NCBI GenBank assembly: GCA_009993955.1 | Contig: JAACSL010000009.1 | Span: 46,369-110,368, forward strand | DNA: 64,000 nucleotides | Origin: Paraglaciecola sp. | GTDB taxonomy: Bacteria > Pseudomonadota > Gammaproteobacteria > Enterobacterales > Alteromonadaceae | Reading direction: 5' to 3' | Part shown: one piece after another, positions 50,146-63,072 of the stretch | Layout of the letters: each line of letters begins with the position of its first letter | Numbering within the stretch: position 1 is the stretch's first letter | Position numbers and translations under genes: made by a program | Notes under the pieces: generated by a model | The model's database searches: none | What the model saw: the letters and a program-made list of their open reading frames with translations, nothing else | Told to the model about the DNA's origin: nothing

Positions 50146-50463
50146 TTAAGCGCTCAATAGCACACTCAGCAGTAGCGTGGCTAACGCACCCACCACTGCC
50201 CCACCCGCAAAGATCACAAAATGCAGTCGCGGGTTGGGCACAGGTTGTAGCGTTTTTTCTTCAGGTTTGGGCACAGCAAACAACACCTCGCGTTTCACTT
50301 CAAAGGCCACACACAAGGCCATGATGGTCTCCAGCGAGGCGCTACCTTGGTTTTCAACACGCTGAATGGTGCGCAAGTTGACATCACACACCTCTGACAG
50401 CTGCTGTTGCGTCCACTGCTTCGAAAGTCTCAGTGACTTAACGATGTCGCCGCGTAACTCCAT
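50146..50463 (-). CDS. XRE-family helix-turn-helix protein with C-terminal transmembrane anchor
   Basis: IVKSLRLSKQWTQQQLSEVCDVNLRTIQRVENQ is an HTH_3 motif. The C-terminal FVIFAGGAVVGALATLLLSVLL is a TM helix. Confidence 0.75.
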   Translation of the reverse strand: MELRGDIVKSLRLSKQWTQQQLSEVCDVNLRTIQRVENQGSASLETIMALCVAFEVKREVLFAVPKPEEKTLQPVPNPRLHFVIFAGGAVVGALATLLLSVLLSA

Positions 50464-50469
50464 GGCTGT

Positions 50470-50904
50470 TTATGCCCAAAATTTCATAATAAGGCTCACA
50501 GAGCTGTAGCCCACCACGGCGCCTAAAAGCGCTGCGAGAATGATCACCCAAATGGATGTTTTCTTAGCGTTGGGCAGGTAAGCTTTACTCTCTTTTGCCA
50601 CTAATACATCGTTGGCATACAAACTTACCTGCACTTCCCCCGTGGCAAACTTAGCCAAATACACCTCTGCACGATACTGGATCTCACCGACAGTGAAATA
50701 GTGTTGACTGAGTCGACCAAATAACTTGTGTTTAATCGATACAGGATGATTGTTAACGTACATGGTTTCTTTGCCTGACCACGCTGAGCCGTGCATAGAA
50801 ATGTCATTGCCTTGATGATCGAAGTAAAACCAGTAGCCATTTTTCATGCTGACCTGACTCATAGCGGCATCTCTGTTAATGTTGATAGTTTGATTGTCTT
50901 TCAT
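50470..50904 (-). CDS. Hypothetical C-terminally anchored membrane protein
   Basis: 144 aa from the ATG preceded by AAGGAG. It has a beta-rich soluble part and a C-terminal TM (IWVIILAALLGAVVGYSSVSLI). It ends 6 nt before the XRE gene. Confidence 0.55.
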   Translation of the reverse strand: MKDNQTININRDAAMSQVSMKNGYWFYFDHQGNDISMHGSAWSGKETMYVNNHPVSIKHKLFGRLSQHYFTVGEIQYRAEVYLAKFATGEVQVSLYANDVLVAKESKAYLPNAKKTSIWVIILAALLGAVVGYSSVSLIMKFWA

Positions 50905-51030
50905 TTTATGCTCCTTGTTAATAGCCAGCACATTGAAGGTTATTTACCCTTGGGTGAAAACGGCAGATTTACGACAGTCAGGGCAATGGGCGTACGACAG
51001 TCGTGCTGTCGTACACCCCAAAAAGTAAAT

Positions 51031-51059
51031 TTGACAAACCAATCCCAGTCCCTTAACTT
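51031..51059 (+). promoter_or_regulatory. Candidate sigma70 promoter of the AKR-dioxygenase-yeiH unit
   Basis: TTGACA (51031-36), 17-bp spacer, TAACTT (51054-59). The GH31 promoter has the identical architecture. Confidence 0.5.
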
Positions 51060-51077
51060 ATGTCTTATATAAGACAT
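51060..51077. promoter_or_regulatory. Operator-like perfect palindrome ATGTCTTATATAAGACAT
   Basis: 18-bp perfect palindrome beginning immediately after the -10-like hexamer (core TGTCTT from 1 nt after it), 26 nt before the AKR ATG. The same core occurs at 56999-57028 and 62138-62153. Confidence 0.65.
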
Positions 51078-51102
51078 GATTTTATCAAGCGAGAGTATCT
51101 AG

Positions 51103-52068
51103 ATGCCTGATCAGCAAAAGCAAATGCCCAAGGTGGGTTTTGGCCTATGGAAAGTAGCTAAAGAGACTTGTGCAGACGCCGTTTATAACGCGATTAAAGT
51201 GGGTTATCGCCATCTTGACAGTGCCAGCGATTATGGCAACGAGGTGGAAGTGGGCCAAGGAATTCAGCGCGCGCTTGCCGATAAATTATGCCGCCGCGAA
51301 GACCTATGGATCACCTCAAAATTGTGGAATACCTACCACCGCAAAGAGCATGTTGAACCGGCAATACGCAAAAGTTTGCACGATTTACAACTTGATTATC
51401 TAGATCTCTATCTGATTCATTTTCCCATTGCTCAGCCCTATGTCGATTTTAACGACCGTTACCCGCCGGAGTGGATTTTTGATCCCAAGGCTGCTGAGCC
51501 AAAAATGGAAATCGCACCAGTGCCCTTGTACGAAACGTGGCAGGGCATGGAAGCTCTGGTTGAAGCCGGTCTGACCCATAAAATTGGCGTGTGCAACTAC
51601 AATACTGGCCTACTCAATGATTTGATGGCCTACGCAAAGATTAAACCTGCGGTATTACAAGTTGAGTCACACCCTTATCTTACCCAGCAACGTTTGATGC
51701 AATTGGCTCGCGATTACGCCATCGAGGTAACCGCATTCTCCCCGCTGGGTGCTTTGTCTTATTTAGAGTTAGACATGGCAGGGGCACAAGAATCCGTTTT
51801 AGAGCAAGCAGTAGTCAAACAAGCCGCTAAACGCCTAAACAAAACGCCCGCACAAGTGGTTTTACGCTGGGGTGTGCAACGAGGTAACGCTATTGTGCCC
51901 AAGACATCTCGCCCTGAACGCCTTGCAGAAAATTTGGCGATCTTTGATTTTTCCCTCTCAGAGCAAGAAATGGCGGCCATTGATGCATTAAACTGCAACC
52001 GACGTTTTAACGATCCTGGTCAGTTCTGTGCTGCAGCATTTCACAAATTTTATCCTATTTACGATTGA
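51103..52068 (+). CDS. Aldo/keto reductase (xylose-reductase-like subgroup)
   Basis: 321 aa. GFGLWK, the catalytic tetrad context LDSASDYGNE / SKLWN / LIHFP, and LDYLDLYLIHFP. Confidence 0.85.
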   Translation: MPDQQKQMPKVGFGLWKVAKETCADAVYNAIKVGYRHLDSASDYGNEVEVGQGIQRALADKLCRREDLWITSKLWNTYHRKEHVEPAIRKSLHDLQLDYLDLYLIHFPIAQPYVDFNDRYPPEWIFDPKAAEPKMEIAPVPLYETWQGMEALVEAGLTHKIGVCNYNTGLLNDLMAYAKIKPAVLQVESHPYLTQQRLMQLARDYAIEVTAFSPLGALSYLELDMAGAQESVLEQAVVKQAAKRLNKTPAQVVLRWGVQRGNAIVPKTSRPERLAENLAIFDFSLSEQEMAAIDALNCNRRFNDPGQFCAAAFHKFYPIYD

Positions 52069-52076
52069 GGTAAGCC

Positions 52077-53066
52077 ATGGCCACATCAGCAATTCAATAT
52101 GTTAGCGTCGCCAATCAATTGCACTGCAACAACAGCGTTTTTCCCAGTGTGATTGTCAACAATGAAAGTGTGAAAACACTGGCCGAGTGCCGGGATTGGA
52201 TTGCTGAACATCGTGAGGAATTGGAAAGTACCCTACGTGAATCTGGCGCGATTTTATTTCGCGGTTTTCCCATGAATTCTGCAGAAACCTTTGATGAATT
52301 CTCCAGTGCCTTTGGTTACCCCAATTTTACTTATCAAGAATCCTTGTCTAACGCAGTAAGGATCAACTTCACTAAGCGGGTTTTTACCGCCAATGAAGCG
52401 CCCAAAGAAGTCGAGATCTTCTTACATCACGAAATGGCACAAACGCCGATTTCTCCAACTAAACTGTTTTTCTTTTGTAAAACGGCGGCAGAACAAGGGG
52501 GAGCAACACCTTTGTGCCGTTCTGATATGTTGTACGCAGAGTTTGCCCGTCAACAACCAGAGTGGGCAGAACAGTTTGCAAACAAAGGGCTTAAATACAC
52601 CACACAGATGCCCGCTGAAAATGATATCAATTCTGGCCAAGGACGCAGTTGGAAAAGCACTCTAAACGTTGAAAATACGGCTCAAGCAGAAACTAAATTA
52701 ACGGAACTGGGTTACACGTGGACTTGGTTAGACGATGGCAGTTTGCGCGCCACTACGCCAATTTTACCCGCTGTGATTGATATTGGTCAGGGTCAAAAAG
52801 TGTTCTACAACCAACTGATTGCGGCATTCATGGGTTGGAAGGGAGTCAGAGAGAATCCAGCTAAAGCTATCACCTTTGGTGACGGCAGCCATATTCCCAT
52901 CGGCGCTTTGGAACTGATGGTTAAACTGTCTGAAGATTATACCTTTGATGTACCGTGGCAAGACGGTGATATGGCCTTGGTCGATAACTACATTGCCATG
53001 CATGGTCGTCGTCCTTACTCGGGTGAACGTAAACGTCAAGTCTTAGTTGCCTTAGCCATTGATTGA
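52077..53066 (+). CDS. TauD/TfdA-family Fe(II)/2-oxoglutarate dioxygenase (clavaminate-synthase-like subgroup)
   Basis: 329 aa. LHHEMAQ (H-x-E metal ligands), distal IAMHGRRPY (His plus Arg), and GGATPLC. Confidence 0.75.
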   Translation: MATSAIQYVSVANQLHCNNSVFPSVIVNNESVKTLAECRDWIAEHREELESTLRESGAILFRGFPMNSAETFDEFSSAFGYPNFTYQESLSNAVRINFTKRVFTANEAPKEVEIFLHHEMAQTPISPTKLFFFCKTAAEQGGATPLCRSDMLYAEFARQQPEWAEQFANKGLKYTTQMPAENDINSGQGRSWKSTLNVENTAQAETKLTELGYTWTWLDDGSLRATTPILPAVIDIGQGQKVFYNQLIAAFMGWKGVRENPAKAITFGDGSHIPIGALELMVKLSEDYTFDVPWQDGDMALVDNYIAMHGRRPYSGERKRQVLVALAID

Positions 53067-53104
53067 ACAACATTACATAAGCTTATTTTGCTGTAGGTGC
53101 TGAT

Positions 53105-54103
53105 ATGGACAAGGTAAAAACCTTCATACCCGGTATTGTGGTGGCCACCATAACGGGTTTTGCTGCGCTGTTTTTGTCCGAGCATTATGGCGCGCCTGCC
53201 ATGTTATTTGCCCTACTCTTAGGCATTGCCCTTTCGTTTCTATACGAAGAAACCAAATGCAAAACGGGCATCGAATTTACCGCTTGTCATATTCTGCGTA
53301 TTGGCGTTGCCCTGTTGGGTTTGCGCATCGCCTTTGGTGATTTAGCCGCATTGGGCTGGAAAACCGCGCTGGTCCTAATCATCGCCATCGCTACAACCAT
53401 AACCTTTGGCATGTTGGTCGCCAAAGCCTTTGGTTTGAGTAAACGCTTTGGTGTATTGAGCGGAGGTGCTGTGGGTATTTGTGGTGCATCGGCAGCCATG
53501 GCCATTGCCGCTGTATTACCCGAGGGGCCAGAGAAAGAACGCGATACGATTTTGACGGTGATTGGTGTCACGGCTTTATCCACCATTGCCATGGTGTTAT
53601 ACCCCATCATTGCCGGTTTACTCGAGCTTGATCCCACTAGCACCAGCATTTTTCTAGGCGGCACCATTCATGATGTGGCGCAAGTGGTGGGAGCTGGCTA
53701 TTCAGTATCTGAACAAACCGGTGATTTAGCGACCCTGACAAAATTGGTTCGGGTGGCCTATTTGATGCCTGTAGTTTTGTGCATTTTATTTGTGATAAAA
53801 CTGAATTTAAGTAAGCAAAACCAAGCGGGTGAATTGCAAGCTAAGTCGCCTGGTTTACCCGGTTTTTTAATCGCATTTATTGTGTTGATGACTCTAAACA
53901 GTCTGGTCGAACTGCCCAGTCTTGTGACCACCAGTGCCAACGAGTTGTCACGTTTTGCTCTTGTGGTTGCCATTACCGCCATTGGCATGAAATCCAACCT
54001 GCGTCGCCTGTTAACTGTCGGCATTCGCCCCATCTTATTGCTGATCCTCGAAACCCTGTGGATTGCTGGCTTAATTCTGCTTAGCCTACCCTACTTGGCA
54101 TAA
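53105..54103 (+). CDS. yeiH: YeiH family (UPF0324; putative sulfate exporter family) membrane protein
   Basis: 332 aa, ~10 TM. ILRIGVALLGLRI, GGAVGICGASAA, GGTIHDVAQVVGAG. Confidence 0.8.
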   Translation: MDKVKTFIPGIVVATITGFAALFLSEHYGAPAMLFALLLGIALSFLYEETKCKTGIEFTACHILRIGVALLGLRIAFGDLAALGWKTALVLIIAIATTITFGMLVAKAFGLSKRFGVLSGGAVGICGASAAMAIAAVLPEGPEKERDTILTVIGVTALSTIAMVLYPIIAGLLELDPTSTSIFLGGTIHDVAQVVGAGYSVSEQTGDLATLTKLVRVAYLMPVVLCILFVIKLNLSKQNQAGELQAKSPGLPGFLIAFIVLMTLNSLVELPSLVTTSANELSRFALVVAITAIGMKSNLRRLLTVGIRPILLLILETLWIAGLILLSLPYLA

Positions 54104-54481
54104 AACAATCGCTCAGGGCACAAATCCCTCGCCTTCACACCTAAAAACAGTAGATCGGGTAAGCAGGACCAGCAGCGATTGACTGCTTCCCATTGACCCT
54201 ACCATGAATCAAGCAAACAACAGATTTAGACTGGCTAATCGTGCTGGCTAATCGTGTTAAAGCTGAAAAATCATTCTAGGTATGGCCTGCATATTTTCAT
54301 GGGGCTGAAAGACAAAGACACTAACACTCACTCACGCCACCACAGAATCTCGCCTTGTCGATGTCAGGCAATGTGTGTTTGTGGATTGGGCTTGAGCACA
54401 GACGCCCTTGAATGGGTGTGGCAATGCATAGCGTATTAACACAGCGCAACTGGGCACTGCCTGATAGACAAAAGCAAGACA

Positions 54482-54526: not shown

Positions 54527-56884
54527 TTAGAACTTCGCTCTTAACTGCACACCAAAATACCGATCTGCGTCACGTGGGATCTGATAACGGAAACCGTCAC
54601 CAGAATAGGTGGTAATAAAACTCTCATCCGTTAAATTTTTACCGATGAGGGTAATCCGGTAGTCATCGTCGTTAAACGAAAACGCTAAACTGGCATTTAA
54701 AATCGCATAGTCGGGTAATAAATCCACGGCACTTGGCGTTCCGCCTGGTGCACCCGCATAGATTTCGTCAGTGTAGACATAAGAGCTGTTTAAGATCACA
54801 TCCATATCAGCCAGTTCCCAGGTGTATTCGCCTACCACTGAGTATTTTAAGTCTGGCGAGAAGGGAATATCAGCACCTGAGCGACCATCACAGGTAGTGG
54901 AACCCGCTGGACATAAAAACTCATCAATTTCAGCGTCCACGCTGGCAAAACCGCCGGAAAGCGTGAAGTGCTCAGACACTTGCCACAAAAAGTCTGCTTC
55001 GATACCTTGGGTAATCACCGAACCCGCGTTGGTTAAACGGGTGATGGTCACACCATCGAGCAGTTCAGAGTTGTTGGCTTGGAAGCCATCGATGTTGGTG
55101 CGGAACAAGGCTGCGTTGAAAATTAAATCGCGGCTTGCATATTTATAGCCCAATTCATAGGCATCCGACGATTCTTTGCCGATGGGCAATGTATCGTTGG
55201 TATTCATGTTGTAAAACACGTTAAACGCTGGACCTTTGTACCCTTGCGAATACGTTGCATACACCATGCTGCCTTTGCTTAAATCGTATTGTGCGCCTAA
55301 CTTAATGGCAAAATTGGTTTCATCGGTTTTGCCCGAATAATTGGTGGCAGAATCACGCACACCGATACCACCACGACCATATTCATCATTGTTACGACGA
55401 TTATGATTGAAGCTGACTTCATCATCGGTATAACGCATACCAAACAATAAACGTAAGTCTTCGCTTAGGTGATATTTACCGTCACCAAACAAGGCCCAGT
55501 TATCAAACTGGGTGTTCATAAATGCCGTGGCACTGACGATGTCATTGCGGTTACACGAGATTAAATTGTCAGCAATAAACTGGTCGGCTTGTTCGGCAGT
55601 TGGCGAGGTTTGTCCCAGCTTAGTGCTCAAATAATTTTGAATAGTGGCGGTTAAATTACCTGAGCAACTGGCGTCACGGGTAAAGTTACGCTCAGACTGC
55701 TGTTGCCACCAAAAAAAGCCCACTTGATATTCAAGGTCGTTGCCAATCGGTGAGGCGAGACGAAATTCTTGTGAAGTTTGTTTCCAATTCTGAATACCGG
55801 TGTCATGTAATAAAAACGTGCCGGTGGGGATGGGCTGCGTGCCGCCAATCGAAGTAAAGTCCCCTTCGCGCAATTCAGTGTTATCCCAACTGCGGAATGC
55901 CGTGATAGACGTAAACTCATGGCTGCCCATGGGCTTATCAATTTGCATCGAGAATCCGGTGGTTTCATCTAAGGTGCGAGTTTCAAAATCGTGATCGATC
56001 TTGCGTTGATCTAAGTCAAAATCGCCCGCGCCTGAGCTATTGGGCAACGCTTCTGAATTGGGGTGACGGTTACTTGGGGTGAGTTCCAAATCGGCACAGC
56101 AATTGTCGTTTGATTTCATGTTTTCGAAAATGAATAACATGTCAGTGTCACCGGCTGCTTCCAATTTCAACATGGCACGCAAACCTTCTTTGTCGTAACC
56201 ATTGGTCATTTCATTGGTGTATACATTATTAATGTATCCATCATATTGCGACTTCAATACGGTCAGACTACCTTGAGCGTTGTCACTCAACTCCCCTGAA
56301 ACACTGGTTTTTAAGCGGTATTCGTTGCCTTGGTAAAGGCTAATTTCGGCATTGCCTTCAAAGCCTGTGGTGGGTTTTTTAGTGGTAATGTTCACCACAC
56401 CGGCTGAGGCATTTTTGCCAAACAACGTGCCTTGTGGGCCACGTAATACCTCGATACGCTCTAAGTCATACAAATCAATAAACGCTTGCCCTGAGCGACC
56501 TAATACAACTCCGTCAACCACGGTAGAGACACTGGGCTCGGCGGCGACACTGAAAGAAATCGTGCCTATGCCCCGGATAGTGATGGCTGAGTTACGGTTT
56601 GTATTACCTTTACGGAAACTGACAGAAGGGACTAATCCTTGCAAACCTTCGATGTTGGCTGAAAACGCTGCGTTAATTTGATCTTCACGTAATACCGACA
56701 CCGCCACCGGTACTTCATTCAGGTTTTCCACGCGCTTTTGCGCCGTCACCGTGATTTTTTCCAGTAAGCCTTGATCTTCTTTCGGCTCTTCTTGAGCCAT
56801 CGCTGTCGAGCTCAGAGCTACATAGCTAGACATAGCCAATGCAGCGGTGATGCCGCTAGTTAGTTTACTTAAAGTGAATCGCAT
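54527..56884 (-). CDS. TonB-dependent outer-membrane receptor
   Basis: 785 aa. Signal peptide, plug region (ITVTAQKRVENLNEVPVAVSV, RGIGT), and C-terminal ...QLRAKF with a terminal Phe. Confidence 0.9.
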   Translation of the reverse strand: MRFTLSKLTSGITAALAMSSYVALSSTAMAQEEPKEDQGLLEKITVTAQKRVENLNEVPVAVSVLREDQINAAFSANIEGLQGLVPSVSFRKGNTNRNSAITIRGIGTISFSVAAEPSVSTVVDGVVLGRSGQAFIDLYDLERIEVLRGPQGTLFGKNASAGVVNITTKKPTTGFEGNAEISLYQGNEYRLKTSVSGELSDNAQGSLTVLKSQYDGYINNVYTNEMTNGYDKEGLRAMLKLEAAGDTDMLFIFENMKSNDNCCADLELTPSNRHPNSEALPNSSGAGDFDLDQRKIDHDFETRTLDETTGFSMQIDKPMGSHEFTSITAFRSWDNTELREGDFTSIGGTQPIPTGTFLLHDTGIQNWKQTSQEFRLASPIGNDLEYQVGFFWWQQQSERNFTRDASCSGNLTATIQNYLSTKLGQTSPTAEQADQFIADNLISCNRNDIVSATAFMNTQFDNWALFGDGKYHLSEDLRLLFGMRYTDDEVSFNHNRRNNDEYGRGGIGVRDSATNYSGKTDETNFAIKLGAQYDLSKGSMVYATYSQGYKGPAFNVFYNMNTNDTLPIGKESSDAYELGYKYASRDLIFNAALFRTNIDGFQANNSELLDGVTITRLTNAGSVITQGIEADFLWQVSEHFTLSGGFASVDAEIDEFLCPAGSTTCDGRSGADIPFSPDLKYSVVGEYTWELADMDVILNSSYVYTDEIYAGAPGGTPSAVDLLPDYAILNASLAFSFNDDDYRITLIGKNLTDESFITTYSGDGFRYQIPRDADRYFGVQLRAKF

Positions 56885-56998: not shown

Positions 56999-57028
56999 TA
57001 TCTTTTGTCTTATATAAGACAAAAGATA
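56999..57028. promoter_or_regulatory. 30-bp perfect palindrome TATCTTTTGTCTTATATAAGACAAAAGATA (operator-like) between dctP and the TonB-dependent receptor gene
   Basis: Verified base by base. It has the same TGTCTTATATAAGACA core as the other two sites. TATCTT occupies the -10-like position on both strands. Confidence 0.7.
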
Positions 57029-57103: not shown

Positions 57104-58141
57104 CTACATTGCAGGGCTGCACTGAGCTACAGCATCATCCAGAAGGGTAAGCCACTGGGGGCCAAAACGCTTAGCAAACCAAGGACGCATTTTTTGACTG
57201 GCATCAACAAAAGCTTTTTTCTCTTCGACTGAGAGCCGATAGATAGTGCCACCGGCGGCTTCAAACAAACGATAAGAGTTGGCTTCTTGGTCTTTAACAT
57301 ATTGATTGGCTGCCTGCGCCTGCAGCGCGAAACCTTGCAAAACTAATTGTTGAATATCAGCCGGTAAACCTTGCCACACGGGTTCAGAAAACCACCAAAG
57401 AGTGGCCATGTATGAATGCCCATCGAGGATCACATACTTCAAATGCTCTTCTAGTTTCGCACCAATAATATCTTGAATCCCGTTTTTACTGCCTTCCACT
57501 ACACCAGTTGCCAACGCCGTGTATAGTTCAGCCCACGAGATGGGGGTGGGATTAGCCCCTAGCTGGCGAACCAACTCTTGTTGAATATCAGCCTCTGTGG
57601 TGCGAATTTTTAAACCTTTCAGATCATCAGGGCTATGCACCGCTTTATCGGTGGTAGCAAAATTTCGCCAGCCCCCCGTATTTGATACACCAAGCAAACG
57701 CAAATTCAGCCCCTGTTGCAGCACTTGTCTGCGCATTTCATCCATTAATGGTCCCCAGAGAACACATTCCGCTTGGCTATCGTCGGTAAAAACATAAGGT
57801 AAATCAATAACCTGCGCGGGGCTGAAAAAGTTACCCGTGCCTCCTGCGGTACTGGGGAAAATCTCTAATACACCCTTTTGCAGATTACCAATGCACTCGG
57901 CCACACTGCCACAAAATTGCCCCGATGGATAAAGTTGCACCTGCACCCTACCCTGACTTTGTTGTTCGACATACTGCTTAAAAACCAGCAGACCAATGTA
58001 GTCTTCGTCTTGAGTGGAAGCCTGAATCGAGGCTTTGATGGTAAATTCGGCATGTTTAACCGTGCTATTGAACAGGCCAATGGCACAGACCATCACTACC
58101 GTGGCGTAGATCAACAGTAAGGCCTTGCGTTTGGTTGTCAT
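57104..58141 (-). CDS. TRAP transporter substrate-binding protein (DctP family)
   Basis: 345 aa from the ATG at 58141 (the longer ORF starts at TTG 58156). N-terminal anchor/signal, then the DctP-like pattern; it lies directly after dctM. Confidence 0.8.
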   Translation of the reverse strand: MTTKRKALLLIYATVVMVCAIGLFNSTVKHAEFTIKASIQASTQDEDYIGLLVFKQYVEQQSQGRVQVQLYPSGQFCGSVAECIGNLQKGVLEIFPSTAGGTGNFFSPAQVIDLPYVFTDDSQAECVLWGPLMDEMRRQVLQQGLNLRLLGVSNTGGWRNFATTDKAVHSPDDLKGLKIRTTEADIQQELVRQLGANPTPISWAELYTALATGVVEGSKNGIQDIIGAKLEEHLKYVILDGHSYMATLWWFSEPVWQGLPADIQQLVLQGFALQAQAANQYVKDQEANSYRLFEAAGGTIYRLSVEEKKAFVDASQKMRPWFAKRFGPQWLTLLDDAVAQCSPAM

Positions 58142-58142
58142 C

Positions 58143-59429
58143 TTAGGCAAACCCAAACCAGCGAGGTAAGGTCATGGTTAGCACCGGGAAATAGGTGATG
58201 AGCAAGATAACCAAGGCTTCAACGGCTAAAAACGGCAGCATTTCTATGGCAATATTTTCGGTTTTTTCCCCTGACACCGAGGCAGCCACAAATAACACTA
58301 AACCCATGGGTGGTGTAGCCAGCCCAACGGTTAAATTCACACACATAATCACAGCAAAGTGCAAGGGGTCGACCCCCAAGGTAATAAAGATCGGCGCCAA
58401 TACTGGCCCTAAAATCAAAATCGCCGGGCCAGCGTCGAGAAACATGCCAATAGCAAACAAAAATAAGTTGATAATCAACAACAGCAACAAGACATTGTCG
58501 GTGATGCCAACTATCTGCTGGGCCATTAAATCGGCCATGCCCGACACCGTGATGATCCAAGCAAAGGTCACGGCCGAACCGACCAATAATAAAATGGTGC
58601 CAGACTGAATGGCTGAGTTAACCAAGATTACAGGCAAGGAACTTGACTTCAGGGTTTTGGTAAAGAACAGGGTAATGATCAAAGCATAACCCGCTGCCAC
58701 TGCTGCAGCTTCAGTGGGTGTGAACACACCAAGCACAATGCCACCGAGCAAGATTACCGGTGTTAACAGCGGCAGAAAGGAGCCTTTAAGGGCTTGACCA
58801 CGCTCTGTCCACGTTGCTTTAAGGTTAGCCACCGGATAATTGCGTTTTTTCGCAATTCGGCTGGTCACCAGCATCAAACCCACACAAATCAATAAACCCG
58901 GTACTATCCCTGCTAAAAACATACCGGCCACCGATACGTTCATAATAAAGGCATATAAAATCATGATCCCAGAGGGCGGAATAATCGGCCCGATCACCGA
59001 TGAAGCCGCGGTCACCGCTGCGGCAAAACGCCGACTGTAGCCGTTTTGTTCCATGGCCGGGATCAGCATTTTGCCTAAGGCTGAGGTATCGGCTACCGCA
59101 GAGCCTGATAAACCTGCAAATAAGACTGAGGACAAAATATTCACTTGCGCCAAACCACCCCGGTAATGACCGATCAGGGTTTGACTAAAACGCACGATGG
59201 ACTGAGTGATGCCACCTTGATTCATGAGTTCACCCGCGAGGATGAAAAACGGTACCGCCATCAAGGGAAATGAATTCATCCCGGAATACAAACGGGTCAA
59301 TAAGGCAGAGAAAAATACTTCGTTGCCATCAATAAGCAAACTGACACCAGGGCCAATCAGTAAAGCAAAAACCACCGGAGTACCCGCCGTGAGTAACAGT
59401 AAAAACACCCAAAAATAACTTAACGACAT
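58143..59429 (-). CDS. TRAP transporter large permease (DctM family)
   Basis: 428 aa, ~12 TM. LMAVPFFILAGELMNQGGI. Confidence 0.88.
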   Translation of the reverse strand: MSLSYFWVFLLLLTAGTPVVFALLIGPGVSLLIDGNEVFFSALLTRLYSGMNSFPLMAVPFFILAGELMNQGGITQSIVRFSQTLIGHYRGGLAQVNILSSVLFAGLSGSAVADTSALGKMLIPAMEQNGYSRRFAAAVTAASSVIGPIIPPSGIMILYAFIMNVSVAGMFLAGIVPGLLICVGLMLVTSRIAKKRNYPVANLKATWTERGQALKGSFLPLLTPVILLGGIVLGVFTPTEAAAVAAGYALIITLFFTKTLKSSSLPVILVNSAIQSGTILLLVGSAVTFAWIITVSGMADLMAQQIVGITDNVLLLLLIINLFLFAIGMFLDAGPAILILGPVLAPIFITLGVDPLHFAVIMCVNLTVGLATPPMGLVLFVAASVSGEKTENIAIEMLPFLAVEALVILLITYFPVLTMTLPRWFGFA

Positions 59430-59430
59430 G

Positions 59431-60075
59431 TCAGTATTGCTCGCGAATGAGGGGCTGTGACCAGGTGCTCAGTTGCATGAGCAGCTTTTCGATGCCCACC
59501 AGCCAAATTGAGCCAAAGACAAAGGGCGTGCACAAGTAAAAATACGCGAGTTTCACTGGCAGTGAAGACGCATATATTTGCCAACCGCCTTGCACAAATT
59601 CAAGGCTTTGCTTAAAAAACAGGCCACTCACTACCAACAACAATAGGGTGATGAGCAAGTTCGATAATTTATATAGGCTAGGTGGTAGCGCGTCAGCAAA
59701 CATATCAATGGAGACATTAAGATTTTCACGGTAAGCCCAAGGTGCAACCAAACAGGCTATCCACACCATAAAAAACTTGGCCAATTCTTCTGTCCAGCCA
59801 AGAGAATTGTTGAGGCCATACCTGAATATCACTTGAGCAATGATCATCACTAACATCAGTGCGAGGAGCACACCAGCCAGATATTTGGCCAGTAAACTGA
59901 CCGCATAATTGAATTTCGCCAGTCCGTTAAGTAGTGGGGCTAACACGATGCAAAGCCCAGAGTAATGTCGTGCATCAGCGCCAATACTGTGTTTATCAAC
60001 ACTAACACTCACTCCAATAGTGACTGATTTGCACGGTGTTACCCAGTTGTTCGGTGTGTTCGACATCTGGGCCAA
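59431..60075 (-). CDS. TRAP transporter small permease (DctQ family); start uncertain
   Basis: 4 TM. FRYGLNNSLGWTEELAKFFMVWIACL. The ATG at 60075 would overlap the GH31 3' end by 74 nt; an alternative GTG lies at about 59946. Confidence 0.75.
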   Translation of the reverse strand: MAQMSNTPNNWVTPCKSVTIGVSVSVDKHSIGADARHYSGLCIVLAPLLNGLAKFNYAVSLLAKYLAGVLLALMLVMIIAQVIFRYGLNNSLGWTEELAKFFMVWIACLVAPWAYRENLNVSIDMFADALPPSLYKLSNLLITLLLLVVSGLFFKQSLEFVQGGWQIYASSLPVKLAYFYLCTPFVFGSIWLVGIEKLLMQLSTWSQPLIREQY

Positions 60076-62074
60076 TGGCTAAGTCGTGACCTTGTTTCAC
60101 AAAAACGGCCATCTCCTGCCAAGCTAGCTTAAGCTTATGGATACGACCACCGCTAAACACTTGTTTGTCAGCAAAAGCTAACCAGTCGCCCTCTGGTAGG
60201 TAAAACTCAACCTCGCCTCCGGGTTGTACGCAGGGTACCACCAAGAGGCTATCACCAAACATAAACTGCAATTCAAAGCCCCAGCTCAAACGTTCCAATG
60301 GGAAAGCCAAGGCCATGGCTCGCATCACAGGCAAACCCGTTTCACTGGCTTGTTGCATGGTGCGATAAATATAAGGCAGTAGTTTGTAGCGCAGTTTTAA
60401 AGCAATATTCACTGCGGCTTCCGCTTCAGGTCCATAACTCCACGGTTCACGTTGACCGATGCCATGCAAACGCATGTGGGCAGAAAAGACCGCGGTTTGT
60501 GACCAGCGTACAAATAATTCTGGATCCCGCATGTCCTTGTAAAAGCCACCCACATCAGTGGCGAAATAAGGAGAACCTGACATGCCCCAAGACAAAGCGC
60601 CACGTATGCTGCCCACTAAACCACCCCAATCGGCTTGAGGATCACCCCCCCATTGGCTGGGATAACGTTGTGAGCCAATCCACGCAGAGCGACTGAATAA
60701 AAACGGCCCAGATTGACAGTAGGCCTCGGCGGCTTGATAGACACAACGGTTGTATAACAAACTATAAATATTGTGCAGGCGCAAACCAGAGTCACCGTTG
60801 TAGGCAAGCATGTTGTCATCTTCTACCTGCTCACCAAAGTCGGCTTTAATCATATCAATACCCAAGTCAAACAAGGGTTTGTGTGATTCTAGCCAAAACT
60901 GAAACGCATCGGGGTGAGTGAAGTCGACGATGCCCGATTCAGGCAGCGGGGTGAGCACTTCGGCAAAGGCACTCATGTCCCATTGGTAACGATAGGCTTC
61001 GCCAGTACGCTTGTCTTTGAGTAACCAGCCCTTGCGCGCCATCTCTGCAAACAAAGGGTTGGCCACTGAAACCAAGGGATACTCCCAAATACAAATTTTA
61101 AAGTTCAGGGCTTTTAGCTGATTAAGCACCGCGGCAGGGTCGGTATAACGCTTTTTGTCCCACTCAAAAGCAAAACGGGTATCGGTGTCCTGCCATGCTC
61201 GGCCGTCTAAGGTGATCACATCACAAGGCATGTGGTGCTCACGTACCGCTTTGGCCGTAGCCAGTAACTCTGGCACATCGCGATAATAGGCTTTGGAGAG
61301 AATCACCCCCAAACTCCAAAATGGTGGTACAGGGGCTTTACCGGTTAATTGAGTGTAGCCTTCGATAATGGCCTGACCATCTTCACCGCGCAAAATAAAC
61401 ACATCCATGGCGGGATCTTCCACGACCAGACTGTAAGCGCGGTTTGACCACGGCGCATACCCAACCGCATGGGTAACCGGTGCGGGTGTGTGCACAAATG
61501 TTCCCCAGCCTTTGGGACTCCAACAAAATGGCGTATTTTTGTAGGATATTTCTGCGTTGACACCCAAGGCATCATGATTGTAGGAGCGCAGCAGTTGCCC
61601 ACGTTTATTCAAGCCCGCCCATTTTTCCCCGAGACCAAAGACCGGCTCTTCTGGCGCAAGATCAAAACTCAGCAACCACCCTTCTGGTACTTTTGCCAAA
61701 GGTGGTAAACGATACTGGCGAACAAAGTGCCCATCGTTTGGTGTGCGTTGGATAAGTGTGTCGCCACAATGTAAAGTAAAGGCAAATGGACGTTTTTGAC
61801 AGCGTAACCGCCACTCGCCACTATGAATAAGCACAAACTCATCTTGATCGTCTATGCGACAAGGCAATTGTGCAGGTAGGCACTGTAACATGCCGTAATC
61901 ATGAAGATTTTGTTTGCCTATTTGCAGCCGAACAGCAAAATCAAAAAACATGAGACTCAAGCTACCTTCAGTCGTCTCAATACTTACCTCAAGACCACTT
62001 GTAGCCAGGCTGGCTTTGCCAATTAGTTCAAGTTGTTTAACCTTATTCCAATTGGGCGAATTGCAGTCGAGCAT
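60002..62074 (-). CDS. Glycoside hydrolase family 31 (YicI-like alpha-glycosidase)
   Basis: 690 aa. The nucleophile region IKADFGE, WGGD, DVGGF, and long collinear similarity to E. coli YicI as recalled. There is no signal peptide. Confidence 0.85.
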   Translation of the reverse strand: MLDCNSPNWNKVKQLELIGKASLATSGLEVSIETTEGSLSLMFFDFAVRLQIGKQNLHDYGMLQCLPAQLPCRIDDQDEFVLIHSGEWRLRCQKRPFAFTLHCGDTLIQRTPNDGHFVRQYRLPPLAKVPEGWLLSFDLAPEEPVFGLGEKWAGLNKRGQLLRSYNHDALGVNAEISYKNTPFCWSPKGWGTFVHTPAPVTHAVGYAPWSNRAYSLVVEDPAMDVFILRGEDGQAIIEGYTQLTGKAPVPPFWSLGVILSKAYYRDVPELLATAKAVREHHMPCDVITLDGRAWQDTDTRFAFEWDKKRYTDPAAVLNQLKALNFKICIWEYPLVSVANPLFAEMARKGWLLKDKRTGEAYRYQWDMSAFAEVLTPLPESGIVDFTHPDAFQFWLESHKPLFDLGIDMIKADFGEQVEDDNMLAYNGDSGLRLHNIYSLLYNRCVYQAAEAYCQSGPFLFSRSAWIGSQRYPSQWGGDPQADWGGLVGSIRGALSWGMSGSPYFATDVGGFYKDMRDPELFVRWSQTAVFSAHMRLHGIGQREPWSYGPEAEAAVNIALKLRYKLLPYIYRTMQQASETGLPVMRAMALAFPLERLSWGFELQFMFGDSLLVVPCVQPGGEVEFYLPEGDWLAFADKQVFSGGRIHKLKLAWQEMAVFVKQGHDLAIGPDVEHTEQLGNTVQISHYWSEC

Positions 62075-62137: not shown

Positions 62138-62153
62138 ATTCTTATATAAGACA
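62138..62153. promoter_or_regulatory. Third copy of the operator motif (ATTCTTATATAAGACA; 14/16 match)
   Basis: On the minus strand it reads TGTCTTATATAAGAAT, 1 nt after the TAACTT -10 hexamer. It lies 64 nt upstream of the GH31 ATG and 170 nt upstream of the gntR ATG. Confidence 0.6.
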
Positions 62154-62322: not shown

Positions 62323-63072
62323 ATGAAAGAAATTCGCTTCGATAATAAGCTCAGTAGCACTGGACCGGTATTCAAACCACTTTACAAACAAGTGGAAGAA
62401 CACATTAAACAACTCATTGTCGAGCAGCGCTGGAAACCGGGTGATATGTTACCAAACGAATTTCAGTTGGCGGCAGAGCTGAATGTAAGCCAAGGCACCA
62501 TGCGTAAAGCCCTAAATAGCCTGACCGATACAAAAGTATTAACCCGAAAACAAGGGGTGGGCACCTTCGTTTCTGAGCACACCGCGCAAAATGGATTATT
62601 TCGATTTTTCCCCATCATCGCTGATGGCAACAATCCTGAACTACCCAAAGCGGAACTGCTGTCCATTGATTCACAAGTACCCGATAAACTGGTTGCCAAC
62701 GCCCTGGAGCTGAGTAACAAAGACAAGGTGATTGTGATGCGCCGCAGACGCATATTAAATGATGAATACTGCATTGCCGAGACAATATACCTGCCCTATG
62801 TGTATTTCAAAAACATCCTTGAGATCACGGACATTCCTCACACCTTGTATCACTTTTATCAAACCCACTTTAACCTGACTGTGCACAGCACCCAAGATGC
62901 GATAAAAGCTGATTTGGCCGATGAGTTAGATGCGCAGCTGATGAACATTGCCGTAGGCGAGCCGATTTTATCCGTGCAACGCACCGTTCATTCTTTGAAT
63001 GGAAAGGCTATGGAGTTTCGCATTAGCCGTTGTAGAAGTGACAAATATCACTATTTGGTGAAGCTCAATTAA
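62323..63072 (+). CDS. GntR family transcriptional regulator, HutC subfamily (UTRA effector domain)
   Basis: 249 aa. PLYKQVEEHIKQLI...W.PGDMLPNEFQLAAELNVSQGTMRKALNSL...VLTRKQGVGTFV, and a C-terminal UTRA-length domain. Confidence 0.88.
   Translation: MKEIRFDNKLSSTGPVFKPLYKQVEEHIKQLIVEQRWKPGDMLPNEFQLAAELNVSQGTMRKALNSLTDTKVLTRKQGVGTFVSEHTAQNGLFRFFPIIADGNNPELPKAELLSIDSQVPDKLVANALELSNKDKVIVMRRRRILNDEYCIAETIYLPYVYFKNILEITDIPHTLYHFYQTHFNLTVHSTQDAIKADLADELDAQLMNIAVGEPILSVQRTVHSLNGKAMEFRISRCRSDKYHYLVKLN

Follow-up and report, generated by a model that had tools for sequence, protein, structure and literature searches.

A probable sulfoquinovose dioxygenase of the Alteromonadaceae type beside a YeiH-family membrane protein in Paraglaciecola

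Sulfoquinovose (SQ) is the sulfosugar of algal and plant membranes. Its sulfolytic degradation via the sulfo-SDO (sulfo-ASDO) pathway, described between 2023 and 2026, hinges on the Fe(II)/2-oxoglutarate-dependent SQ dioxygenase SqoD and lets a single bacterium use all six SQ carbons, with the sulfur returned as sulfite or sulfate. In Alteromonas macleodii ATCC 27126, the pathway is encoded by a ten-gene cluster, MASE_17990-18035, which includes a sulfite dehydrogenase pair, a “sulfate transporter”, SqoD, the glycosidase SqgH, and a receptor; the dioxygenase AmSqoD (MASE_18005) was demonstrated to release sulfite and 6-dehydroglucose from free SQ and was induced 58-fold on SQ (PMC12780224). 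A second type is represented by MaSqoD of Marinobacterium aestuarii (PMC12951627, PMC10507154), the structurally characterised enzyme. The present work concerns a stretch of 64,000 nucleotides from Paraglaciecola sp. (assembly GCA_009993955.1, contig JAACSL010000009.1, positions 46,369 to 110,368), hereafter the window, in which a TauD-family open reading frame (52077..53066, + strand, 329 aa, PF02668) lies between an aldo/keto reductase (AKR) gene and a gene of the YeiH/UPF0324 family.

This reading frame is concluded, with a probability of roughly 85% and from comparison of sequences, to encode SqoD of the sulfo-SDO pathway in its Alteromonadaceae form. The evidence gathered here comprises homology, conserved residues, synteny, a palindrome common to the transcription units, and RNA contigs that join neighbouring genes. 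The sulfo-SDO cluster is complete in the window, with an SqgH-type GH31 glycosidase, the AKR, a transporter of the tripartite ATP-independent periplasmic (TRAP) type, a TonB-dependent receptor, and a GntR regulator within 12 kb. The finding resolves to a known pathway, as an unassayed orthologue in a variant cluster, and with it the Alteromonadaceae-type cluster is seen in a further genus, in a version having TRAP uptake and lacking a sulfite dehydrogenase. The idea of a desulfonating dioxygenase coupled to a YeiH-family exporter, put forward in the original prediction made from the DNA letters, is supported by homology and cluster context.

In the proposed scheme, SQ or SQ-glycerol would cross the outer membrane via the TonB receptor and the inner membrane via the TRAP transporter, and free SQ would be released by the SqgH-type GH31 enzyme. 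SqoD would then hydroxylate SQ at C6 by way of an Fe(IV)-oxo intermediate, forming succinate and CO2 alongside, and the resulting alpha-hydroxysulfonate would collapse into 6-dehydroglucose plus sulfite. The C6 aldehyde would be turned into glucose by the xylose-reductase-like AKR with NAD(P)H as reductant, while YeiH would export the toxic sulfite (or sulfate). One operator palindrome is envisaged to serve the AKR-SqoD-YeiH operon, the receptor gene, and the GH31-TRAP operon alike, all under the neighbouring GntR/HutC regulator.

The dioxygenase and its closest relatives

The translation carries the motifs LHHEMAQ (H117, E119), GGATPLC, and MHGRRPY (H309), and scores 108.5 bits against PF02668 (cut-off 27). 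The AKR and dioxygenase genes are separated by exactly 8 nt, the dioxygenase and YeiH genes by exactly 38 nt, with GAGG and AGGTG as ribosome-binding sites before the dioxygenase and YeiH genes, respectively; the open reading frame coordinates and the Pfam search thus confirm the earlier description of a 329-aa PF02668 protein with an HxE triad set between these two neighbours. The gene is single-copy in the 4.16-Mb genome (100% complete by marker genes). A phmmer search of solved structures returned 9yut (MaSqoD; E 1.4e-66, 228 bits) and 1y0z, the plant protein At3g21360 (E 5e-65, 223 bits), as the closest relatives, all other structures being weak, with the next match at E 0.007. The five entries 9yut-9yux match the five MaSqoD states reported in Chem Sci 2026 (PMC12951627).

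The dioxygenase is 68-70% identical to its Alteromonas orthologues, among them that of A. stellipolaris (68%), its nearest named neighbour on the tree. These values exceed the 60% cut-off for SqoD used in PMC12780224, as measured to congeners of A. macleodii, the AmSqoD sequence itself not being in the comparison; A. stellipolaris has been shown to use and grow on SQ (PMC12780224). The tree was a quick IQ-TREE reconstruction in which two long branches (P0165 and P0287), probably misplaced, adjoin the window's pair. Close relatives (66-96% identity) all come from Alteromonadaceae and allied marine Gammaproteobacteria, namely Paraglaciecola, Glaciecola, Aliiglaciecola, Alteromonas, and Arenicella, with Paraglaciecola supplying the closest named records. 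An orthologue was present in 35 of the 250 genomes and 9 of the 59 genera of the family sample, including all eight genomes of the window's genus. The database labels on these close relatives read only “TauD/TfdA family”, “taurine dioxygenase”, or “SyrP”. The gene itself goes under no more than “TauD/TfdA family” or “taurine dioxygenase” in public databases, which makes re-annotation useful.

The iron-binding triad is His115/Glu117/His308 in MaSqoD (PMC12951627) and H121/E123/H313 in AmSqoD (PMC12780224). In MaSqoD, the sulfonate is held by a neutral Gln plus a network of backbone amides, and the SQ network as a whole is neutral, comprising Gln120, Trp253, the backbone of Met118, Ala89, and Ala185, and the lid-loop residues Tyr85 and Arg92 (PMC12951627). 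Pairwise alignment placed the triad of MaSqoD and its M118, Q120, W253, and Y85 at H117/E119/H309, M120, Q122, W254, and Y86 of the window protein, and R92 at R95 as a probable equivalence after a two-residue insertion in the lid loop; relative to AmSqoD, the triad is numbered four lower. None of these residues (H117/E119/H309, M120, Q122, W254, Y86, and R95) varies among 119 orthologues with identities of 66-100%. Within the pocket, G187 and Q188 replace Ala185 and Ile186 of MaSqoD, and A250 replaces Val249. The HxE triad is present as originally noted and is the same as that of MaSqoD and AmSqoD (PMC12951627, PMC12780224). The substrate had been regarded as genuinely open; sulfoquinovose, one of the candidates proposed for assay at that time, is now indicated by homology and context, HxE being native to the characterised SQ dioxygenases. 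The accompanying advice to inspect the pocket for sulfonate-binding Arg/His residues would mislead in view of the neutral Gln and backbone amides of MaSqoD (PMC12951627).

The AlphaFold model of the dioxygenase (pLDDT, the per-residue confidence, 92; pTM, the predicted template-modelling score, 0.90) was compared with PDB chains in Foldseek, MaSqoD being compared by sequence only. At3g21360 (1y0z) was matched with a template-modelling (TM) score of 0.91-0.93, 1.9 A root-mean-square deviation, and 36% identity, while TauD, BBOX, VioC, and other family members were equally distant at TM 0.52-0.57. The sequence, residue, and fold matches together argue that the dioxygenase belongs to a distinct SqoD/At3g21360 subfamily and is not meaningfully nearer to clavaminate synthase. 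The original prediction had placed it closer to the clavaminate-synthase-like branch, a claim that did not hold up: the similarity is a weak C-terminal one (E 0.04-0.7), and VioC is no nearer than TauD by fold.

At3g21360, annotated as a “clavaminate synthase-like protein”, is the closest solved fold, but it is a plant protein whose proxy falls outside the window's clade. The representatives standing for it on the tree (P0259 and P0200) are in a clade with Ma-type SqoD, to which the Am-type is the sister clade. The plant protein (1y0z) retains HHEMAQ, the lid-loop motif YxGGAAPR, the SQ-stacking Trp, and the distal HxR.

The reductase, the exporter, and their transcription

The AKR gene (51103..52068, + strand) encodes a xylose/aldose-reductase-like protein of 321 aa (PF00248, 159.6 bits) with the catalytic tetrad D39/Y44/K73/H106; among solved structures, it scores highest against fungal xylose reductases (290-308 bits). 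SqoD is its direct neighbour in 74 of 80 loci, all taken from named genomes. The characterised reductases SmoB/SquF (PDB 7bby-7bc1) share with it the PF00248 family, the position beside a C-S-cleaving oxygenase, and the same expected reaction, but they are YdhF-like AKRs, whereas the window AKR groups with xylose/aldose reductases. SmoB was not among its 60 best solved relatives. The SquF-type AKR of Marinomonas, which matches SmoB 7bbz at 339 bits, is only 22% identical to the window AKR (E 6e-10); membership in SquF/SmoB was ruled out on that identity, the published criterion being more than 50% within one UniRef50 cluster. As the SquF-type enzyme is so distant, the reductase step appears to be filled by a non-orthologous AKR in place of SquF/SmoB, and the window protein would be an NAD(P)H-dependent 6-dehydroglucose reductase by function rather than by SquF membership, it being chemically plausible that an aldose-reductase-type enzyme would reduce a C6 aldehyde. 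The main text of the 2025 Nat Commun paper (PMC12780224) does not mention a reductase. A 2023 survey with SquF as marker found the pathway only in Oceanospirillaceae, because a non-SquF reductase such as this one escapes SquF-based mining.

The YeiH/UPF0324 gene (53105..54103, + strand) encodes an inner-membrane protein of 332 aa and is the sole PF03601 gene of the genome. The protein matches PF03601 at 224 bits (cut-off 24.5) over profile positions 1-303 of 304, and TIGR00698 (“YeiH family putative sulfate export transporter”) at 142.7 bits, under the cut-off of 232.6. YeiH follows SqoD throughout the Alteromonadaceae loci and corresponds by position to MASE_18000, the “sulfate transporter” of A. 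macleodii. In Salmonella, YeiH is the main sulfite-resistance determinant, and deletion of yeiH renders the cells sulfite-sensitive (PMC12880088); a homologue has also been implicated in Bordetella sulfur homeostasis. The Salmonella and E. coli proteins belong to the same Pfam family over the full length and share the logic of sulfite-stress removal (PMC12880088), but their gene adjoins the sulfite-sensing LysR regulator YeiE, whereas the window yeiH sits in a catabolic operon marked by GntR/HutC. A 47%-identical YeiH (L091:1593-2588, Marinomonas genome G015) was found in a cluster of Ma-type SqoD together with SquF, a TRAP transporter, and a GH188-like Gfo/Idh/MocA protein, and its occurrence beside SqoD of the other type fits sulfite export; it was missing from the second Marinomonas Ma-type cluster inspected (L092), hence present in one of two. 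The best reading is that YeiH would export SqoD-derived sulfite, or sulfate. A SorA-type sulfite dehydrogenase was not found genome-wide with an Alteromonas SorA query (SoeABC was not searched for), and a TauE gene is missing from the window's cluster. As a candidate sulfite dehydrogenase, the genome's sole PF00174 gene was rejected, since it pairs with a Ferric_reduct protein in the manner of MsrPQ. Export, and not oxidation by an enzyme of the cluster, is the probable fate of the sulfite.

Upstream of the AKR gene, a promoter-like and probable operator region (51031..51077, + strand), read from the sequence, is composed of TTGACA (51031-51036), a 17-nt spacer, and TAACTT (51054-51059), abutting the palindrome ATGTCTTATATAAGACAT (51060-51077). 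No terminator- or promoter-like site was seen on the + strand between AKR, SqoD, and YeiH. RNA evidence came from three aquifer metatranscriptome runs (2020), one of which yielded a single error-free contig of 3026 nt equal to 51134-54159, which begins 31 nt into the AKR gene and ends 56 nt beyond the yeiH stop codon, with no RNA cover over the adjacent 50451-50901 in the same metatranscriptome. The AKR/SqoD junction is also spanned in a second run, and the contigs of the three runs end at 54148-54188. These observations favour a single tricistronic AKR-SqoD-YeiH transcript. Independent expression of yeiH had been named beforehand as an outcome that would speak against the proposed coupling; the bridging contig points instead to co-expression with the two upstream genes.

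The 16-nt core of the palindrome, TGTCTTATATAAGACA, occurs in three copies in the window against 0.19 expected, one upstream of each of three transcription units: copy 1 from 51061, upstream of the AKR gene; copy 2 at 57006..57021, upstream of the TonB receptor gene; and copy 3, degenerate with two mismatches, at 62138..62153 between the GH31 and GntR genes. In 63 of 74 related loci, spread over several families, the AKR gene is likewise preceded, at a distance of 350 nt or less, by a closely similar palindrome. The palindrome is the probable operator of the GntR/HutC regulator.

Alternative substrates and the weight of the evidence

Several points weigh against the assignment as SqoD. The identity to the structurally characterised MaSqoD and the Ma-type enzymes is just 34-36%, and the quick tree of the At3g21360-like subfamily has the Am-type and Ma-type proteins in separate deep clades, both well supported. 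The tie to the assayed AmSqoD would run through congeneric orthologues and gene order, and the chemistry itself would be carried over from assayed relatives outside the genus of the window protein. Two pocket-lining residues are unlike those of MaSqoD (I186 to Q188 and V249 to A250), and the lid loop is two residues longer. The SQ contacts are common across the At3g21360-like subfamily (Q in 70 and W in 54 of 90 representatives), so that their conservation would appear necessary but not sufficient for SQ specificity. Among the partners, the AKR is not of the characterised SquF/SmoB type and its role is undiscussed in the main text of the SqoD papers, and the substrate of the YeiH family, sulfite or sulfate, is a putative assignment. 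As for transcription, RNA contigs cannot prove a single transcript, and carry-over of DNA is not fully excludable.

The pocket differences, the longer lid loop, and the wide spread of the SQ-contact residues in a large subfamily could be accommodated if the enzyme performed the same chemistry on another natural substrate, such as an SQ derivative or other sulfosugar (for example SQ-glycerol or an oxidised or epimeric sulfosugar), as could the existence of AKR-SqoD alone, with no nearby glycosidase or SQ transporter, in Balneatrix and one Marinomonas genome. This is considered unlikely, however, as AmSqoD, which shares its orthologue group and type of cluster with the window protein, acts on free SQ (PMC12780224), the cluster has a dedicated SqgH-type glycosidase to liberate SQ, and the SQ-contact residues are invariant across the 119 orthologues. 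Very unlikely is a TauD-like sulfur scavenger that would take sulfite for assimilation from small aliphatic sulfonates such as taurine and isethionate. Such a role would agree with membership in PF02668 and with databases calling the relatives “alpha-ketoglutarate-dependent taurine dioxygenase”, and E. coli TauD, besides its Pfam family, has in common with SqoD the alpha-hydroxylation of a sulfonate followed by sulfite elimination. TauD, however, has an HxD triad and a cationic Arg/His clamp for the sulfonate in place of the HxE triad and the neutral Gln/backbone network of SqoD, and no solved TauD was retrieved by phmmer at E <= 1, the TM score being about 0.54. MaSqoD is inactive on the C2/C3 sulfonates taurine, homotaurine, 2,3-dihydroxypropanesulfonate (DHPS), and cysteinolic acid (PMC12951627). 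TauD serves sulfur scavenging, whereas the window enzyme would serve carbon assimilation, in a context of sugar uptake, glycosidase, reductase, GntR/HutC regulator, and sulfur exporter that is the opposite of scavenging.

The HxE triad, the weak C-terminal similarity to VioC, CmnC, and GntD, and the labels “SyrP protein” or “clavaminate synthase-like” that some databases give to relatives would suit a clavaminate-synthase-like enzyme that hydroxylates an amino acid or a small amine in the manner of VioC, AsnO, or SyrP. Such an enzyme is extremely improbable given family scores of 12-23 bits against cut-offs of 345-419 (GntD 23.1 against 345; VioC 18.8 against 418.6), E values of 0.04-0.7 over just about 50 C-terminal residues, and a TM score to VioC of 0.52-0.53; the cluster has no nonribosomal peptide synthetase, siderophore, or amino-acid genes, its partners being a glycosidase and a sugar-type reductase. 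Classical TauD, clavaminate-synthase-like, and SyrP-type readings were all rejected on scores and context, leaving SqoD of the Alteromonadaceae type as the preferred assignment.

A broader proposal, to which about even odds are given, is that AKR-SqoD-YeiH constitutes a self-contained “SQ to glucose plus exported sulfite” cassette, with a corollary for the At3g21360-like subfamily. Two of its elements may be biochemically new, namely that a xylose-reductase-like AKR took over the role of 6-dehydroglucose reductase from SquF/SmoB and that YeiH acts as the sulfite exporter of the pathway. The xylose-reductase-like AKR and the occurrence of YeiH also in an SqoD cluster of the other type, in Marinomonas, go beyond the published text, and the recurrence of YeiH gives a testable physiological role to a widespread, poorly characterised membrane protein family. 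Since the two assayed types occupy separate deep clades and the plant protein preserves the SQ contacts, SQ dioxygenases may make up a large part of the At3g21360-like subfamily, plant At3g21360 included; if true, plants might desulfonate their own sulfolipid headgroup.

The remainder of the cluster and related loci

Downstream of the AKR operon, the TonB-dependent receptor (54527..56884, - strand) has plug and beta-barrel domains. Receptors 57-88% identical to it occur in related clusters, and that of A. macleodii is up 107-fold on SQ (PMC12780224); it is the probable route of SQ or SQ-glycerol across the outer membrane. The TRAP system, to which inner-membrane uptake of SQ or SQ-glycerol may be attributed, is encoded on the - strand by DctP (57104-58156, PF03480), DctM (58143-59429, PF06808), and DctQ (59431-60075, PF04290, TTG start), with counterparts of DctP (43% identity) and DctM (63%) in the TRAP system of a Marinomonas SqoD cluster. 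The DctQ reading frame and the 3' end of the GH31 gene share 74 nt, and the true DctQ start is probably downstream of the listed TTG because the Pfam match begins only at residue 74.

The GH31 glycosidase (60002..62074, - strand, 690 aa, three GH31 domains) is assigned to the SqgH type (sulfoquinovosidase). Its nearest solved structures are YicI-type (323-331 bits against 123 bits for YihQ), which places it nearer to subfamily 3 (YicI-type) than to subfamily 13 (YihQ) and, in a sulfo-SDO cluster, agrees with the definition of SqgH; AmSqgH is likewise YicI-like rather than YihQ-like and represents the new SqgH clade (PMC12780224). It is 61-64% identical to the GH31 enzymes of Alteromonas clusters, over the 50% cut-off of the authors when measured on congeners instead of AmSqgH itself. 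The GntR/HutC-type regulator (62323..63072, + strand; GntR helix-turn-helix plus UTRA domain in Pfam) has counterparts of 57-61% identity in Alteromonas clusters and is the probable repressor of the three transcription units. Across Alteromonadaceae, GH31, GntR, and TonB receptor genes are found near AKR-SqoD-YeiH.

In an Alteromonas locus (L039), the order TonB-dependent receptor-SSF-GH31-TauE-GntR/AKR-SqoD-YeiH-SorA-small protein fits the layout of MASE_17990-18035. The A. macleodii cluster and the window have in common the AKR-SqoD-YeiH core order, the SqgH-type GH31, the GntR regulator, and the TonB receptor. They differ in that Alteromonas has an SSF symporter where the window has TRAP DctPQM, and possesses TauE and the SorA-type sulfite dehydrogenase pair, both absent from the window; the GH31-TRAP-receptor block, moreover, lies downstream of the AKR operon in the window but upstream in Alteromonas. 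Ma-type clusters resemble the window in their TRAP transporter and GntR regulator, and in YeiH in the Marinomonas version (YeiH-DctPMQ-AKR / GntR-Gfo/Idh/MocA-SqoD), but their partners differ, being a SquF/SmoB-type reductase and an NAD-dependent GH188 (Gfo/Idh/MocA) glycosidase.

A bare AKR-SqoD pair with the same upstream palindrome was seen in Marinomonas sp. 2405UD68-3 (L069) and Balneatrix alpica (L080), where no glycosidase, SQ transporter, or YeiH was found within 10 kb and only an EamA transporter is nearby. DNA near-identical to 51000-54200 is present in about 20 runs labelled as aquifer or groundwater metagenome (2017), and also under hot-springs labels; the aquifer/groundwater label is unexpected for an Alteromonadaceae sulfosugar cluster, and no habitat conclusion is drawn from it. 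Lastly, a record named “Flavobacterium sp. W21_SRS_FM6” (L002, NZ_JBGQOM010000002.1) carries the same cluster with 75-96% protein identity, and the genome with a match at its corresponding coordinate (G126, C2:148264) is assigned to the window's own genus, so that the organism name looks wrong or the assembly mixed.

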